Part shown: positions 7,221-57,825 of the stretch, piece by piece
Layout of the letters: the number at the start of each line of letters is the position of its first letter
Position numbering within the stretch: the stretch's first letter is position 1
DNA from: Octopus vulgaris
Lineage: Eukaryota
Direction of reading: 5' to 3'
Length of the DNA stretch: 64,000 nucleotides
Assembly: GCA_951406725.2 (NCBI GenBank)
Contig: OX597832.1
Coordinates: 65,534,001-65,598,000, forward strand
The notes under the pieces: model-generated
Databases searched by the model: none
Told to the model about the DNA's origin: nothing
The model's input: only the letters and a program-made list of their open reading frames with translations
Made by a program: the position numbers and the translations under genes

Positions 7221-7874
7221 TGCTAGAGTAGACCACATAGTGGTCGCTCTCTTATATTTATGTATAAAATGTATGAAAATCCGGGTTTTATATGCACTAA
7301 GCCGCTTGGTGTTAAATGGATGTACTATTAAATTAGTATACAACTTTATCACCCTCATTAGTTGATTGTAACTATGCTACATTTAATTTTGGATGTAGTA
7401 TCTGTTTCTGTGAGTGTTGGCGGGCTAAGACAGGGGCACTTAAACTATAGCAGCGAATGCAATTGGCTGGACTACACGTGCGTTTGTCGTGGTGGTGAAG
7501 TCTAGCGTGCGGTCGAGTTAATTGTATTCTGAATGGGTTCGGCCGAGGAGCTACAAATAAAGGTATATTATGTGAGTAAAATTACATAATTTATTAATCT
7601 ATTAATAGCGAAACAATTGTCCGAACTAATTTGAATTTTTGTTATGTTTATTTGCCCTGTCTGCGCCAGTAGTTGTGCTAATATTCATCGGAAACATTTT
7701 TTATGTGGCTGAAGCCCAATGGTTCTATTTTTAGTGCTAGAGTAGACCACATAGTGGTCGCTCTCTTATATTTATGTATAAAATGTATGAAAATCCGGGT
7801 TTTATATGCACTAAGCCGCTTGGTGTTAAATGGATGTACTATTAAATTAGTATACAACTTTATCTCCCTCATTA
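7219..7874 (+). mobile_element. Non-coding element with 142 bp terminal direct repeat (period 514 bp) and a hammerhead variant; retrozyme or Penelope pLTR-like
   Basis: 7219-7360 = 7733-7874 (one mismatch); ends in (TA)n; hammerhead-like motif at 7536-7627. Confidence 0.7.
7536..7627 (+). ncRNA. Type I hammerhead ribozyme variant (CCGAGGA core)
   Basis: Stem I GGTTCG/CGAACT, extra G, CCGAGGA, stem II GCTA/TAGC with internal hairpin, GAAA, palindromic ACAATTGT stem III, GTC triplet. Confidence 0.6.
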
Positions 7875-7924
<50 letters not shown>

Positions 7925-8144
7925 TCAATATAGGGTGGCAAAAAATTTCGTAGAATTCTTTGGCCACCAGCGGCCTAGTGGGAAAAAAATTAAATAGTCA
8001 TAGACCATTTATAAATTCAACAGCAAAATCAAGGAACGGCCATAATAGGCCATTCACCCACTAGAAATAACAGCCAAAGCTTCAACCGCAAAACAACATT
8101 AATTCCGCAAACAAGGAGAAAATTAAAAAAACATTTACCCTGTA

Positions 8145-8251
8145 GTTTTTTATACGATGCACCGTTTCATCTATTGTTTAATGGTAAACTAACCTGATTA
8201 AATTAAATCAAGCTAGTCTTCCATAGGCCGATAGATTCGTCAGTAAAGAAC
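8145..8251 (-). ncRNA. Type I hammerhead ribozyme (one stem I mismatch)
   Basis: Reverse complement: GTTCTTTA-CTGACGA-ATCTAT...ATAGAT-GAAA-CGGTGCATC-GTA-TAAAAAAC. Confidence 0.85.
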
Positions 8252-8628
8252 GGCCAGATCGGAGCAGATATTTACACGAGGCACTTCTATCACTGTCTCG
8301 GCAATATCTGACCTAAAATTTTCAAATCATCGCACTAGCGCCAAATTTATCGGCAGCAAATATAAGCCGCCGATTCCATTACGGAATTAACCAGAAAATT
8401 CATAATTAATCAATATAGGGTGGCAAAAAATTTCGTAGAATTCTTTTGCCACCAGCGGCCTAGTGGGAAAAAATTAAATAGTCATAGACCATTTATAAAT
8501 TCAACAGCAAAATCAAGGAACGGCCATAATAGGCCATTCACCCACTAGAAATAACAGCCAAAGCTTCAACCGCAAAACAACATTAATTCCGCAAACCAGG
8601 AGAAAATTAAAAAAACATTTACCCTGTA

Positions 8629-8735
8629 GTTCTTTATACGATGCACCGTTTCATCTATTGTTTAATGGTAAACTAACCTGATTAAATTAAATCAAGCTAG
8701 TCTTCCATAGGCCGATAGATTCGTCAGTAAAGAAC
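8629..8735 (-). ncRNA. Type I hammerhead ribozyme
   Basis: Intact core CUGACGA/GAAA/GUA and perfect 8 bp stem I. Confidence 0.9.
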
Positions 8736-9096
8736 GGCTAGATCGGAGCAGATATTTACACGAGGCATTTCTATCACTGTCTCGGCAATATCTGACCTAA
8801 AATTTTCAAATCATCGCACTCGCGCCAAATTTATCGGCAGCAAATATAAGCCGCCGATTCCATTACGGAATTAACCAGAAAATTCATAATTAATCAATAT
8901 AGGGTGGCAAAAAATTTCGTAGAATTCTTTTGCCACCAGCGGCCTAGTGGGAAAAAATTAAATAGTCATAGACCATTTATAAATTCAACAGCAAAATCAT
9001 ATAAATTCAACAGTGCGATGATTTGAAAATTTTAGGTAAGATATTGCCGAGACAGTGATAGAAGTGCCTCGTGTAAATATCTGCTCCGATCTGGCC

Positions 9097-9203
9097 GTTC
9101 TTTACTGACGAATCTATCGGCCTATGGAAGACTAGCTTGATTTAATTTAATCAGGTTAGTTTACCATTAAACAATAGATGAAACGGTGCATCGTATAAAG
9201 AAC
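9097..9203 (+). ncRNA. Type I hammerhead ribozyme
   Basis: GTTCTTTA(9097)-CTGACGA(9105-9111)-ATCTAT..ATAGAT-GAAA(9180-9183)-CGGTGCATC-GTA(9193-9195)-TAAAGAAC; predicted cleavage after 9195. Confidence 0.92.
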
Positions 9204-9324
9204 TACAGGGTAAATGTTTTTTTAATTTTCTCCTGGTTTGCGGAATTAATGTTGTTTTGCGGTTGAAGCTTTGGCTGTTATTTCTAGTGGGTGAATGGCC
9301 TATTATGGCCGTTCCTTGATTTTG

Positions 9325-9385
<61 letters not shown>

Positions 9386-24316: not shown

Positions 24317-25093
24317 CAGTAGTTTTATTTTTTATAGCGTGGTTTCACTTCACTACCGAGCGCAGCTCTGTGTGCCTTGGGTATGTGCTGTGATTTGTTG
24401 TGATGCTCTGATGGTTATTGTATGGAAAGTGTTCTGCGTAGGATGTGTGCAGTGCTAGTAGTGCAATTTTCTGTATGTTATATGTGTTTGTAAGTCGTGG
24501 TGTATTTGTTATGTATTTGTCTGAATATTTTTTTATCATGCCTAATGTACCTACTATGATAGGAATTGTTTCTGTTTTCAGATTCCACATTCTGGTTACC
24601 TCTATTTCCAGGTCTTTGTATTTTGAGAGTTTCTCCATTTCTTTTAGAGAAACGTTGTCATCTGCCGGTATTGATACATCAATTAGAAAGCATTTTTTTC
24701 TTCATGATCCCTGACAACTATATCTGGTCTGTTGGCCTTAATTTCTCGATCTGTGTGTATCGGCATATCCCAGAGTATGGTTGCTTTCTCGTTTTTCTGT
24801 GACCTTTTCTGGTGTGTGCATATACCATCTTTTTTTTGTTGTTATTCCATAATGTTGGCTTAGCTTCCAGTGTATGTAGGTTCCAACTCCGTCATGTCTG
24901 TGAATATATTCCTTCTTAGCCAGGACTGGGCAGCCAGACATAATATGATTTATTGTTTCTTGTCCATCTCCACATATTCTGCAGTTACTTGTTATATTTC
25001 TTTTCATTACATGTTTTTGGTAATTTCTGGTGGGGAGGCTTTGGTCTTCTTCTGCAATTAAAGATCCCTCTGTCTCTGATTTGAGTCCTGAGC
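24317..25093 (-). mobile_element. R4/Dong-type LINE family A, 5'-truncated, frameshifted
   Basis: SSGLKSETEG..DQSLPTRNYQ..CRICG..ETINHIMSGC (CCHC) ..RHD..PD..KYKDL; flanked by (TTA)n and (TTC)n. Confidence 0.9.
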
Positions 25094-48179: not shown

Positions 48180-49118
48180 CATTATTGATTTACACAAAAG
48201 AACTTGCCAACATATATATTTTTCATAATGTTTTTTCCTCTTTAGTCGCAAAATACTTTGTGAAAATATCGCTATCTTCTTCAATAATACGAACGACCAA
48301 CCACTCTTCAAATAATGCTTACATCGTCAGCCAAAAATATACTCCTGCGATACTATGATATAAACAGTGTTTGTTATTGTATTCAAATATTTGTTTGCCC
48401 TGCTTGCGTATTATATATCAGATAACATTGTTTTATTTTTCATTAGCATCCCAAACCAGGAGCAAATATTTAGTTATAAGAATATATGTGAACATATATT
48501 CCGACACAGACACACAGACACACACACAGACACACATACACACACACACACAAACACACACACACATTTATATATGATGAATCTGACAAAGATGTATATT
48601 TTACAGAGAGTCTCCAAGCAAACTTTTAGGCCCATTCATAGATCATAAATATATAGCTAGATAGTTCAACTTACCGTATATATCTATCTGTTACTTGTTT
48701 CAGTCATTTTACTGCGGCGATGCTGTGGCACCGCCTTGATGGGTATTTTAGTAGACTATTCAACACCAGAGCGTACTTTTTACTTGTATTATTCTATCGA
48801 TCTGTCTTGCCAGACCATCAGGGTACGAGGCCATGGTAGCTGCCGTGAGGGACAAACCCAGACACAAATACACACGGACATAAATATATAAACACACACA
48901 CACACACACGCACACACACATATATATATACGTATGTATAAATATATATATACACATATACAATATATAAATATAAATATATATATGTCTATATATCAAC
49001 AATAAAGGAACGGCCATAATAGGCCATTCACCCACTAGAAATAACAGCCAAAGCTTCAACCGCAAATAAAAGTTAATTCAGTAAACCAGGAGAAAATTTT
49101 AAAAACATTTACCCTGTA

Positions 49119-49225
49119 ATTTCTTATACGATATACCGTTTCATCTGCTGATTAATGGTAAACTAACCTGATTAAATTAAACCAAGCCAATCTTCCACAG
49201 GCCCTCAGATTCTTCAGTAAGAAAT
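49119..49225 (-). ncRNA. Type I hammerhead ribozyme
   Basis: Reverse complement: ATTTCTTA-CTGAAGA-ATCTG..CAGAT-GAAA-CGGTATATC-GTA-TAAGAAAT. Confidence 0.9.
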
Positions 49226-49613
49226 AGCCCAAGACGGAACAGATATTTTCACGAGGCATTTCCGACGTTGCCAAGTTAATATCTGACCTAAAATTTTCAA
49301 ATCGTCGCACTCGCGCCAAATTTATCGGCAGCAAATAAATATAAGCCGTCGATTCCATTACGGAATTAACCAGAAAATTCATAATTAATCAATATAGGGT
49401 GGCAAAAAAAAAATTTTGTAGAATTCTTTTGCCACCAGCGGCCTAGTAGGAAAAAATTAAAATAGTCAAAGACCATTTTTAAGTTCAACATCAACAATAA
49501 AGGAACGGCCATAATAGGCCATTCACCCACTAGAAATAACAGCCAAAGCTTCAACCGCAAATAAAAGTTAATTCAGTAAACCAGGAGAAAATTTAAAAAA
49601 CATTTACCCTGTA

Positions 49614-49720
49614 ATTTCTTATACGATATACCGTTTCATCTGCTGATTAATGGTAAACTAACCTGATTAAATTAAACCAAGCCAATCTTCCACAGGCCCT
49701 CAGATTCTTCAGTAAGAAAT
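49614..49720 (-). ncRNA. Type I hammerhead ribozyme
   Basis: Same motif as 49119-49225. Confidence 0.9.
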
Positions 49721-50464
49721 AGCCCAAGACGGAACAGATATTTTCACGAGGCATTTCCGACGTTGCCAAGTTAATATCTGACCTAAAATTTTCAAATCGT
49801 CGCACTCGCGCCAAATTTATCGGCAGCAAATAAATATAAGCCGTCGATTCCATTACGGAATTAACCAGAAAATTCATAATTAATCAATATAGGGTGGCAA
49901 AAAAAAATTTTGTAGAATTCTTTTGCCACCAGCGGCCTAGTAGGAAAAAATTAAAATAGTCAAAGACCATTTTTAAGTTCGACATCAACAATCTGTGGAA
50001 GATTGGCTTGGTTTAATTTAATCAGGTTAGTTTACCATTAATCAGCAGATGAAACGGTATATCGTATAAGAAATTACAGGGTAAATGTTTTTTAAATTTT
50101 CTCCTGGTTTACTGAATTAACTTTTATTTGCGGTTGAAGCTTTGGCTGTTATTTCTAGTGGGTGAATGGCCTATTATGGCCGTTCCTTTATTGTTGATGT
50201 TGAACTTAAAAATGGTCTTTGACTATTTTAATTTTTTCCTACTAGGCCGCTGGTGGCAAAAGAATTCTACAAATTTTTTTTTTTTTGCCACCCTATATTG
50301 ATTAATTATGAATTTTCTGGTTAATTCCGTAATGGAATCGACGGCTTATATTTATTTGCTGCCGATAAATTTGGCGCGAGTGCGACGATTTGAAAATTTT
50401 AGGTCAGATATTAACTTGGCAACGTCGGAAATGCCTCGTGAAAATATCTGTTCCGTCTTGGGCT

Positions 50465-50571
50465 ATTTCTTACTGAAGAATCTGAGGGCCTGTGGAAGAT
50501 TGGCTTGGTTTAATTTAATCAGGTTAGTTTACCATTAATCAGCAGATGAAACGGTATATCGTATAAGAAAT
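50465..50571 (+). ncRNA. Type I hammerhead ribozyme
   Basis: CTGAAGA 50473-50479, GAAA 50548-50551, GTA 50561-50563, stem I ATTTCTTA/TAAGAAAT. Confidence 0.92.
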
Positions 50572-50958
50572 TACAGGGTAAATGTTTTTTAAATGTTCTC
50601 CTGGTTTACTGAATTAACTTTTATTTGCGGTTGAAGCTTTGGCTGTTATTTCTAGTGGGTGAATGGCCTATTATGGCCGTTCCTTTATTGTTGATGTTGA
50701 ACTTAAAAATGGTCTTTGACTATTTTAATTTTTTCCTACTAGGCCGCTGGTGGCAAAAGAATTCTACAAAATTTTTTTTTGCCACCCTATATTGATTAAT
50801 TATGAATTTTCTGGTTAATTCCGTAATGGAATCGACGGCTTATATTTATTTGCTGCCGATAAATTTGGCGCGAGTGCGACGATTTGAAAATTTTAGGTCA
50901 GATATTAACTTGGCAACGTCGGAAATGCCTCGTGAAAATATCTGTTCCGTCTTGGGCT

Positions 50959-51065
50959 ATTTCTTACTGAAGAATCTGAGGGCCTGTGGAAGATTGGCTT
51001 GGTTTAATTTAATCAGGTTAGTTTACCATTAATCAGCAGATGAAACGGTATATCGTATAAGAAAT
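50959..51065 (+). ncRNA. Type I hammerhead ribozyme
   Basis: Same motif; GTA at 51055-51057. Confidence 0.92.
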
Positions 51066-51882
51066 TACAGGGTAAATGTTTTTTAAATTTTCTCCTGGTT
51101 TACTGAATTAACTTTTATTTGCGGTTGAAGCTTTGGCTGTTATTTCTAGTGGGTGAATGGCCTATTATGGCCGTTCCTTTATTGTTAATGTTGAACTTAA
51201 AAATGGTCTTTGACTATTTTAATTTTTTCCTACTAGGCCGCTGGTGGCAAAAGAATTCTACAAAATTTTTTTTTTTTTTGCCACCCTATATTGATTAATT
51301 ATATATGTCTATATATATATACATACATACATACGCACACACACAAACACGCATACACACACACACATGTATATGTTCAAATAGATACAGTAGCAAAAAA
51401 CTAAAAATAAATTCATACTCACCGTTAGATATGACAGAGAATATGATGCTCGGATGAAAGATATAATATCCTATATCAAATGACGGTATATACACGATTC
51501 ATAGCAAAACGCCATTCATAATTTCGGAGCTATGTGAAATTTCACACAAATCTACTTCGAAAAGCACCAAACAGCTGATTGAAAGAGTCACTGCGTTTAA
51601 CGGAAATTCTAATTATATTTTTGTTTGTCGCCAACATCTTATTGAACTAATTACAAACTAATTGTAGGAGACAACTTTACATTGTCTAAACGCTCCATCT
51701 TTGCCTTTTGTAATTCATAGTATGTCGCGTCTTCATCCTCCATTCCGTAATTGTACAGGAAGCTGCACACATATACACAAACGCACAAATACACACATAC
51801 AAACACACACACATAGAGATATATCGATAGATATCGCTCTAACGTGGTATATACATACATACATACATATATATATATATAT

Positions 51883-56002: not shown

Positions 56003-56380
56003 CGATTCGCAGCAATGTGAGGGTTAAGAGCGTGTGTTGCCTTCTAATGTGTTTATGAAAAGTTAGATGAGAATAATACTGCTGGTGAGACTGAGTGGAT
56101 CTACTTTCCTATGTATGCCTTTCGCAGCAGGAGGAATGAAGATGGAATATGATACTTCTCGTGCCTTGGGGTAGTAAAATAATCCGGGGCACTTTGTGCG
56201 GGGTTTACACCACTTGCGCTATTGGGAATTCTATTAATTATTATTTCCTAATTTCTATTTTTATATATTTTTATATCATATTCTCAAATATTGTACTTCC
56301 CATTCACCCCATTCACCATTCCCCTCAAATTGTTTCTCTATTTTACTTCGTCCTCCATGTCCTGTAATAACAATAATATT

Positions 56381-56536
56381 ATGTGACCACCATATGTGAC
56401 CACCATATCGCGCACATATGGTTGTGATGCATGTGTCTGGTGCACCCTTATCAGATGGGTAGCCATGATAGGTATATTAGGCTTCATATAATTGTAACCC
56501 AGTGTCACTTTGATGGCATGCACTGCTCTCTCACAC
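56381..56536 (+). mobile_element. Element 'E' short 3' fragment
   Basis: Matches ~27200-27342; small ATGTGACCACCAT duplication at the 5' junction. Confidence 0.75.
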
Positions 56537-56552
56537 AATAATAATAATAATA

Positions 56553-57265
56553 AATTACCAAAAACATGTAACGAAAAGAAATATTACAAGTAACTGCAGA
56601 ATATGTGGAGATGGACAAGAAACAATAAATCATATTATCTCTAGCTGCCCAGTCCTGGCTAAGAAGGAATATATTCACAGATATGACAGAGTTGGAACCT
56701 ACATACATTGGAAGCTATGCCAACATTATGGAATAACAACAGAAAAAAGATGGTATAGGCACACACCAGAAAAGGTCACAGAAAATGAGAAAGCAACCAT
56801 ACTCTGGGATATGCCGATACACACAGATAGAGAAATTGAGGCCAACAGACCAGATATAGTTGTCAGAGATCATGAAGGAAAAAAATGCTTTCTAATTGAT
56901 GTATCAATACCGGCAGATGACAACGTGTCTCTAAAAGAAATGGAGAAACTCTCAAAATACAAAGACCTGGAAATAGAGGTAACTAGAATGTGGAATCTGA
57001 AAACAGAAACAATTCCTATCATAGTAGGTGCATTAGGCATGATAAAAAAAATATTCAGACAAATACATAACAAAAACACCAGGACTTACAAACACATATA
57101 ACATACAGAAAATTGCACTACTAGGCATTGCACACATCCTACGCAGAAGACTTTCCATACAATAACCATCAGAGCATCACAACAAATCACAGCACATACC
57201 CAAGGCACAGAGAGCTGCGCTCGGTAGTGAAGTGAAAGCACGCTATAAAAATAAAGCTACTGAAT
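56553..57265 (+). mobile_element. R4/Dong-type LINE family A, 3' fragment
   Basis: NYQKHV..CRICG..ETINHIISSC..ANRPD..KYKDL; ends CTACTG+(AAT)n. Confidence 0.9.
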
Positions 57266-57295
57266 AATGATAATAATAATAATAATAATAATAAT

Positions 57296-57825
57296 TGAAA
57301 AACTTCAAACAAAGAACATGCCTCCTCATTGATATGACTGTCCCAATCGATATAAACGTATCTGTCAAGACCTACCAAAAACTGAGCAAATATAAAGATC
57401 TTGAAATAGAAATCAGCAAAATGTGGAAGCTGAAGACTAAAACAATACCTGTTGTCATAGGTGCCCTGGGAATGATAGCAAAAGGGGCTGATAGCTACCT
57501 AACTCAGATACCAGGAAACCCAAAAATGGCAGAAGTTCAAAAGATAGTGCTCATGGGAACTGCTCATATCCTACGCAAAATACTCTCTATGTAATCTCAA
57601 GGTTTAAAACAAACATAATTTTCGGTTTAAAAAAAAAAACCAAAAAAAAAAAAACCTTTTTTTATTTTTTATTTTTAGACATTCATTAGTACAACATCCC
57701 CACCCCCCAAATATATGGCACACTAGGCATAACAACAACATGAACTTCCAACCCTGTTGTCTCTTGAGGTCTCTGGGTGAGACTTGGAGACAACTTGTAC
57801 AAATATAAAGCAAAAGTCAAACATA

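Follow-up and report, generated by a model that had tools for sequence, protein, structure and literature searches.

The two inverted arrays in the window (the whole stretch of 64,000 nt of octopus DNA analyzed here) are, judged from their sequence, a non-LTR retrozyme whose monomer carries a predicted type I hammerhead ribozyme. We consider it probable, at roughly three chances in four, that this presumably non-coding element is copied in trans by a Penelope-like protein (reverse transcriptase (RT) plus GIY-YIG) through paired target-primed reverse transcription. Each array inserts with two fixed outer ends, named S and T here, and 72 of the 92 arrays examined in the genome pair one S end with one T end; neither S+S nor T+T pairs were found among them (0 and 0). 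A Penelope-like insertion mechanism had been proposed in a first-pass annotation of this DNA and is supported by two families of autonomous Penelope-like elements (PLEs) in the same genome, which show the same architecture.

Monomer, predicted ribozyme and layout of the two loci

The monomer occurs in two variants that are ~87% alike, m1 (484 nt, locus 1) and m2 (494 nt, locus 2); over a block of ~60 nt (positions 61-122) they are identical. Monomer positions are numbered on m2 from the predicted ribozyme cut, which places S ~132 nt and T ~240 nt past the cut. Each monomer contains a type I hammerhead with an 8-bp stem I, CUGANGA, a stem II of 5-6 bp that closes a 68-nt insert, GAAA, a 4-bp stem III and GUA. 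Of 269 monomers, 266 have an intact core, in which N7 varies (A, C, U), and the 34 distinct hammerhead variants exchange C-G and U-A at stem I positions 4-5 and A-U and G-C at stem II position 5. Rfam gave no match in the 64-kb window at the gathering threshold and the hammerheads were found by our own pattern scans; the one with its cut predicted after 8153 escaped the strict scan because of a single mismatch in stem I. The monomer folds with an energy far better than that of shuffled sequences (z -5.1), and its minimum-energy structure differs from the hammerhead fold. By eye, the alignment shows a short open frame in m2 that a 4-nt indel interrupts in m1.

The dispersed tandem arrays have units of a few hundred bp, no LTR architecture and, by our own scans, a type I hammerhead in each unit, as is typical of non-LTR retrozymes. 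They consist of monomer sequence end to end and contain no RT/GIY-YIG open reading frame, and therefore do not represent an autonomous PLE. In sequencing run X2 (RNA by guess), a single contig of 523 nt has the monomer length plus 30; contigs show neither ends nor strand. This is the length that a 493-nt cycle would give at a word size of 31, and a tandem transcript would look alike. A conserved 23-mer of the monomer had no matches in metagenome contigs. Other type I hammerhead-like motifs, unrelated to this monomer, lie on the minus strands of L149 (2967), L159 (6182) and L166 (1054), and more ribozyme-bearing families are therefore likely in this genome.

Both window loci consist of a minus arm and a plus arm joined 5'-to-5' within (TA)n (Table 1). 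The arms are head-to-head with the ribozyme-sense 3' ends pointing outward, and both arrays use the same two outer termini (S at 9327 and 48995; T at 7917-7919 and 51300-51302), as the first-pass annotation had described. The T ends read ...GATTAATT, of which TAT is common to the target. The S positions were given correctly, but S sits 10-11 nt past GGCCGTTCCTT and not directly after it, and the spacing of ~105 nt assigned to the two termini is close to the S-T distance of ~108 nt found here (monomer 132 vs 240). Also as described, the inner junctions differ (~9012 vs 49993): the arm boundaries are 8999/9012 at locus 1 and 49992/49993 at locus 2, the latter being blunt by BLAST ends. The short duplication reported at the locus 1 junction is a 14-nt local one, TATAAATTCAACAG, present at 8978 and 9000. 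Locus 1 is flanked by pure (TA)n, and locus 2 by a 17-bp target duplication (TATATATGTCTATATAT at 48980 and 51300) that adjoins both ends with an overlap of 2-3 nt, a feature not noted in the first-pass annotation.

Table 1. Features of the two retrozyme loci, in window positions.
Feature	Position	Strand	Details
(TA)n target, left flank of locus 1	7878..7919	.	
Locus 1 T arm	7917..8999	-	~2.2 monomers, 484-nt variant; 3' end at the T (tail) site, monomer ~240; 5' end ~122
Locus 1 type I hammerhead	8145..8251	-	predicted from sequence, cut after 8153; one mismatch in stem I
Locus 1 type I hammerhead	8629..8735	-	CUGACGA, GAAA, GUA; predicted cut after 8637
Locus 1 junction filler	9000..9013	+	copy of 8978-8991; last two bases common to the right arm
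Locus 1 S arm	9012..9327	+	316 nt; 3' end at the S site, ~132; 5' end ~310
Locus 1 type I hammerhead	9097..9203	+	predicted cut after 9195
(AT)n target, right flank of locus 1	9328..9385	.	
Locus 2 target-site duplication, left copy	48980..48996	+	17 bp
Locus 2 S arm	48995..49992	-	2.0 monomers, 494-nt variant; hammerheads with predicted cuts after 49622 and 49127
Locus 2 T arm	49993..51302	+	2.65 monomers; hammerheads with predicted cuts after 50563 and 51057
Locus 2 target-site duplication, right copy	51300..51316	+	17 bp

Other repeats were seen in the window. A direct repeat of ~135 nt (7222-7358 and 7736-7872, by eye) lies immediately left of locus 1, and a 41-bp tandem repeat of 6.9 copies at 1533-1814 has a like unit near 56410 (56380-56450). 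Fragments repeated beside (TAA)n runs are located at 56552-57624, with kin at 24793-25026, 28617-28897, 29963-30213 and 34131-34757. A CCHC knuckle and a restriction-like endonuclease can be read in them by eye, and presumably they resemble R4/Dong-type LINEs.

Outer ends and their pairing across the genome

Genome-wide counts were made on the 2.8-Gb assembly. We mapped 79 arrays, consisting of the two in the window and 38 and 39 picked among the matches listed in two genome searches, and 62 of the 79 in this set, which is biased to long, young copies, are S+T (56 called by script and six by eye). In the latter six (L037, L055, L061, L065, L113 and L114) the second arm is tiny or partly deleted and the complementary end is present. 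The other 17 comprise ten single-arm copies (two with the same flanks), three arrays with an off-site or unclear second end, three broken ones and one gapped one. For a second sample, 13 arrays were drawn at regular intervals along the first 100 of the 711 T junctions; it contains ten S+T arrays (two with a small deletion before S), two single-arm copies and one broken array. Contig C1 has 28 T ends and 48 S ends; they form 11 S-T pairs, all of which face outward, and neither T-T pairs nor inverted S-S pairs.

The ends concentrate on two monomer positions, with 32 of 47 S ends at 132 and 31 of 47 T ends at 240. Whether such ends are fixed or scattered genome-wide was the test set by the first-pass annotation; they are fixed, since exact junctions number 711 for T and 611 for S, the latter on the forward strand only because the reverse-strand count is inflated by overlapping matches. 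At a control site of the monomer, a 17-mer with 2,567 occurrences, (AT)5 follows within 30 nt in only 5 of 1270 forward-strand copies and at two distinct reverse places. The predominance of S+T, the lack of S+S and T+T and the control site together exclude chance as the origin of the S and T ends.

Nearly all array ends are flanked by (TA)n. Most target duplications can therefore not be delimited, the informative ones being those of window locus 2 (17 bp), L124, L031, L049 and L101. An AT-rich or (TA)n target with a target-site duplication is what a non-autonomous element mobilized by a PLE should show, as is an inverted 5'-truncated copy with a 3' tail at one end, here ~108 nt long and present in the 72 paired arrays. 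L101 (1914-4226) is a lone S arm whose 49-bp target duplication is far longer than those of two-arm arrays. L118 and L120, 219 kb apart on contig C10, have the same 5' end and similar flanks and probably derive from a segmental duplication.

In the mechanism that we propose, arrays would be transcribed and self-cleave to monomers, some of which may circularize. One complex, probably a dimer, would nick both strands of the (TA)n target with a stagger of roughly 13-22 nt, whereupon one 3'-OH would prime at T and the other at S on the same RNA, with a strong hairpin 10-17 nt 5' of each site. A circular template would allow each cDNA to roll beyond one monomer, and on a linear self-cleaved monomer both would halt near the cut. 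Both cDNA ends would then be trimmed and joined by microhomology-mediated end joining, a single-arm copy being one in which only one cDNA was retained. Staggered nicks on opposite strands, combined with a template of ribozyme sense, would produce the target duplication, the outward 3' ends and the 5'-to-5' junction. The earlier suggestion of priming at two fixed RNA sites on opposite target strands is thus supported, as it fits both the geometry and the target duplication, and the strictness of the S+T rule indicates that the two primings are coupled. Weighing against a PLE is the tail length of ~108 nt, compared with 32-38 nt in the two autonomous families.

Template, inner junctions and alternative explanations

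Within an array the two arms appear to descend from the same template sequence. Divergence between opposite arms resembles that between monomers of one arm (0.95% and 1.05% for the m1 group; 0.29% and 0.22% for m2), with 4.25% and 0.55%, respectively, for other loci. Eleven one-locus variants are fixed in both arms, occurring in every monomer that covers the site; one lies at window locus 2, and one, situated at an end, is doubtful. The other one-locus variants are 15 partial ones and 153 singletons, in a comparison that covers 79 of over 1,000 loci. The longest arm measures 4,608 nt (9.3 monomers) and passes through intact ribozyme sites, for which a circular template would be the simplest explanation; the multimeric or circular template put forward earlier fits such arms.

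The inner junctions are less regular. The 5' ends of 47 clean arrays are spread evenly over the monomer (Rayleigh p 0.86 and 0.30), and the two arms do not differ consistently in length (medians 793 and 669 nt). On a stricter count, 39 of the 47 junctions could be resolved: 14 contain inserted bases, often local copies, and 24 of the 25 insertion-free ones overlap by 1-6 nt (45% expected by chance), with a mean overlap of 2.2 nt vs 0.73 by chance. We take this combination of overlap and filler to be the mark of microhomology-mediated end joining. On the monomer circle, no more than 90 nt separate the two inner ends in 27/47 arrays of the first set and in 9/11 of the second (36/58 in total; 37% expected). 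For the first set, where the distance limit was picked after seeing the data, this closeness is modest (permutation p 0.02, Rayleigh p 0.11); the second sample gives a p of 0.003. Microhomology derived from hairpins was rejected as its cause (36-42% expected vs 62% observed). At both window loci one inner end falls at the S position (122 and 124), but the even spread of inner ends across the 47 arrays led us to drop the idea that this is always so. In four short arrays both arms start at positions 6-74, as if both cDNAs had run off the 5' end of a self-cleaved linear monomer. The first 16 nt past the cut contain an excess of 5' ends in m2 (9/75; 2.4 expected) and no excess in m1 (1/77).

Two RNAs transcribed from a single source locus, or gene conversion, could also have given rise to the shared variants. 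An alternative of the former kind, which we regard as unlikely, is Penelope-type double priming in which each subunit uses its own RNA from one locally active source array and the asymmetry resides in the protein. It would account for arms with the same variants and for arm lengths that are roughly independent (Spearman -0.27, p 0.06), but leaves the closeness of the inner ends unexplained. In addition, chimeric m1/m2 arrays are absent (0/79), though the two subfamilies may have differed in their time of activity. Identical variants in both arms together with nearby inner ends favor one RNA over two.

Self-priming or fold-back, in which the cDNA (or an antisense template; PMC3846280) copies itself and the second end is cleaved at a fixed site, seems improbable to us. 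Near-palindromic junctions (L188, 298/298; L191, 435/433) and the clustering of inner ends would suit it, but small offsets occur in both directions (11 positive, 16 negative) and in L181, L184, L185 and L187 neither arm can copy the other. The arm lengths are impossible in either direction in 8 of 47 arrays (seven clearly), although 12 +/- 2.7 such arrays would be expected if lengths were independent, a number from which 8 does not stand clearly apart, and at least 11 of 58 two-arm arrays checked cannot arise in this way.

Inversion with microhomology at the junction is also known from L1 5' inversions, which the retrozyme arrays resemble in both respects. Twin priming by L1 places the inner end of one arm directly at the second priming site and leaves the second outer end variable. 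The retrozyme arrays, on the contrary, have two fixed outer ends, uniform inner ends and no poly(A) or repeat tail, making twin priming by an unrelated LINE protein very unlikely. An assembly artefact or later rearrangement at the DNA level is hardly credible: inverted tandem arrays in microsatellites are indeed hard to assemble (PMC8557442) and no short-read contig covers a whole locus, but an artefact would not yield fixed one-of-each ends, target duplications and locus-specific filler, and short-read contigs contain 151 joints, of which the 15 listed (DNA run X4) mostly join left-arm to right-arm sequence at scattered positions. In organism B (run X4), several inversion-type joints at 49212-50493 of the window have a word depth of 220-730, vs ~18 in the unique flank; these may be multi-copy junctions in that organism, or repeat words may inflate the depth.

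Autonomous families of the same genome and comparison with known systems

An autonomous Penelope element sharing the termini or the conserved block of the monomer, as envisaged in the first-pass annotation, was not found among the 40 GIY-YIG loci examined (20 of 148 scored matches and 20 longer loci, out of 6,136 candidates in all). Neither these loci nor the ends of the autonomous families N1 and N2 have sequence in common with the monomer, alignments of the N1 and N2 ends being no better than shuffled controls, and tblastn of the N1 protein against the window gave no match. For the connection with Penelope machinery we therefore rely on architecture and on the choice of target rather than on shared sequence. 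Two candidates were rejected as partners: L140, where a solo 57-nt S-end fragment stands beside an unrelated GIY-YIG remnant, and a match in L175 (E 0.27).

N1 encodes an intact frame of 781 aa with RT and GIY-YIG domains and has its own hammerhead; N2 encodes an intact frame of 775 aa. Both families are very young, and 149 of 150 scored N2 matches tie at 99% identity to the query. Both carry a CX4CxxC linker before the GIY-YIG domain, a feature tied to the Neptune and Nematis clades and to (TA)n targeting (PMC8557442). They end in (TA)n at two fixed sites, ~38 nt (N1) and ~32 nt (N2) apart. One end of each type was present in 19 of 19 inverted N2 pairs examined (read by eye) and in 3 of 3 inverted N1 copies, so that the pairing rule holds in 22 of 22 inverted copies across two autonomous PLE families. 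N1 and N2 thus share with the retrozyme the (TA)n target, the two fixed ends and the outward one-of-each pairs, whereas the retrozyme tail is about three times as long. We consider them candidate helpers of, and controls for, the retrozyme.

The two families have further peculiarities. In some N1 copies, two short direct repeats enclose ~600 additional bases (L160 863-1470; L158 has an inverted piece at 161-737). This segment precedes a long upstream frame (479 aa in L161 and L169) and starts with GT and has AG near its end; the short form is no clean splice product. N2 (L178, L192-L229) is an abundant, extremely young unit of 4,270 nt with many tandem and inverted copies, which would suit PLE biochemistry.

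A broader reading, which we put forward tentatively and hold to be somewhat less than an even bet, is that integration of the Penelope type necessarily proceeds by asymmetric double priming on one RNA molecule, with one strand invariably starting at S and the other invariably at T. The retrozyme RNA would be a ribozyme-made circle on which two RTs roll in tandem, recognized by structure only and with no sequence in common with its helper. The origin of PLE inverted repeats and tails and the mobilizer of animal retrozymes are open questions in the literature (PMC8557442, PMC11167929, bioRxiv 10.64898/2026.07.22.740005). The arrays described here offer a countable in vivo footprint, with one-of-each ends, one variant per insertion and arms longer than the self-cleaving unit. 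This footprint makes a clear-cut prediction for the in vitro system that already exists, speaks against self-priming as the general route and lends support to the idea that RNA circles made by ribozymes are reverse transcribed in an animal germ line.

Metazoan non-LTR retrozymes are described as non-coding, low-GC tandem monomers, each with a type I hammerhead, that are dispersed as dimers to multimers and co-occur with PLEs; a circular template and mobilization by PLEs have been proposed (PMC7229834; bioRxiv 10.64898/2026.07.22.740005). The octopus arrays resemble them in their low GC content, their tandem hammerhead monomers, their dispersal as dimers to multimers and their co-occurrence with PLEs. 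The octopus monomer of 484-494 nt compares with 170-400 nt (PMC7229834) and with family lengths of 51-972 nt (bioRxiv 10.64898/2026.07.22.740005), and its hammerhead differs by the 68-nt insert closed by stem II. In the main texts of these two papers there is no account of inverted arms, of fixed termini or of a tail. Their link to PLEs consists of co-occurrence and pLTR homology, whereas here it is an insertion footprint, with no homology found.

Endonuclease-containing (EN+) PLEs of the Neptune/Naiad type have an inverted 5'-truncated copy at the 5' end, a one-ended tail, (TA)n targets, short target duplications and a hammerhead near the end (PMC8557442, PMC3846280). The retrozyme arrays agree with them in the inverted truncated copy, the one-ended tail, (TA)n, the short duplications and the hammerhead near the end, but differ in the apparent lack of an open reading frame, the multimeric arms and a tail of ~108 vs 30-40 nt. 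As far as these sources describe it, the tail of EN+ PLEs is optional or often one-ended, and the retrozyme has an apparently strict one-of-each arrangement. The Poseidon protein PAc (Anolis) nicks and extends both strands of AT-rich targets in vitro, and two internal RT start sites downstream of the hammerhead set the tail (PMC11167929). In that study no difference in start site was seen between the strands, unlike the one S and one T of the octopus arrays, and neither pairing on one target molecule nor a circular template was examined.

Inverted PLE copies, a one-sided 30-40-bp tail, two internal RT starts, double-strand extension, non-autonomous multicopy PLEs (Chlamys MRC1) and the retrozyme-PLE hypothesis have already been published (bioRxiv 10.64898/2026.07.22.740005, PMC11167929, PMC8557442, PMC3846280, PMC7229834, PMC7761336). 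Among the publications covered by our literature search, none was found to describe inverted fixed-end retrozyme arrays, an obligate S+T rule or a 108-nt tail. This work adds a new retrozyme family whose insertions bear a Penelope-type footprint, and it puts numbers on a pairing rule that this family has in common with autonomous PLEs of the same genome.
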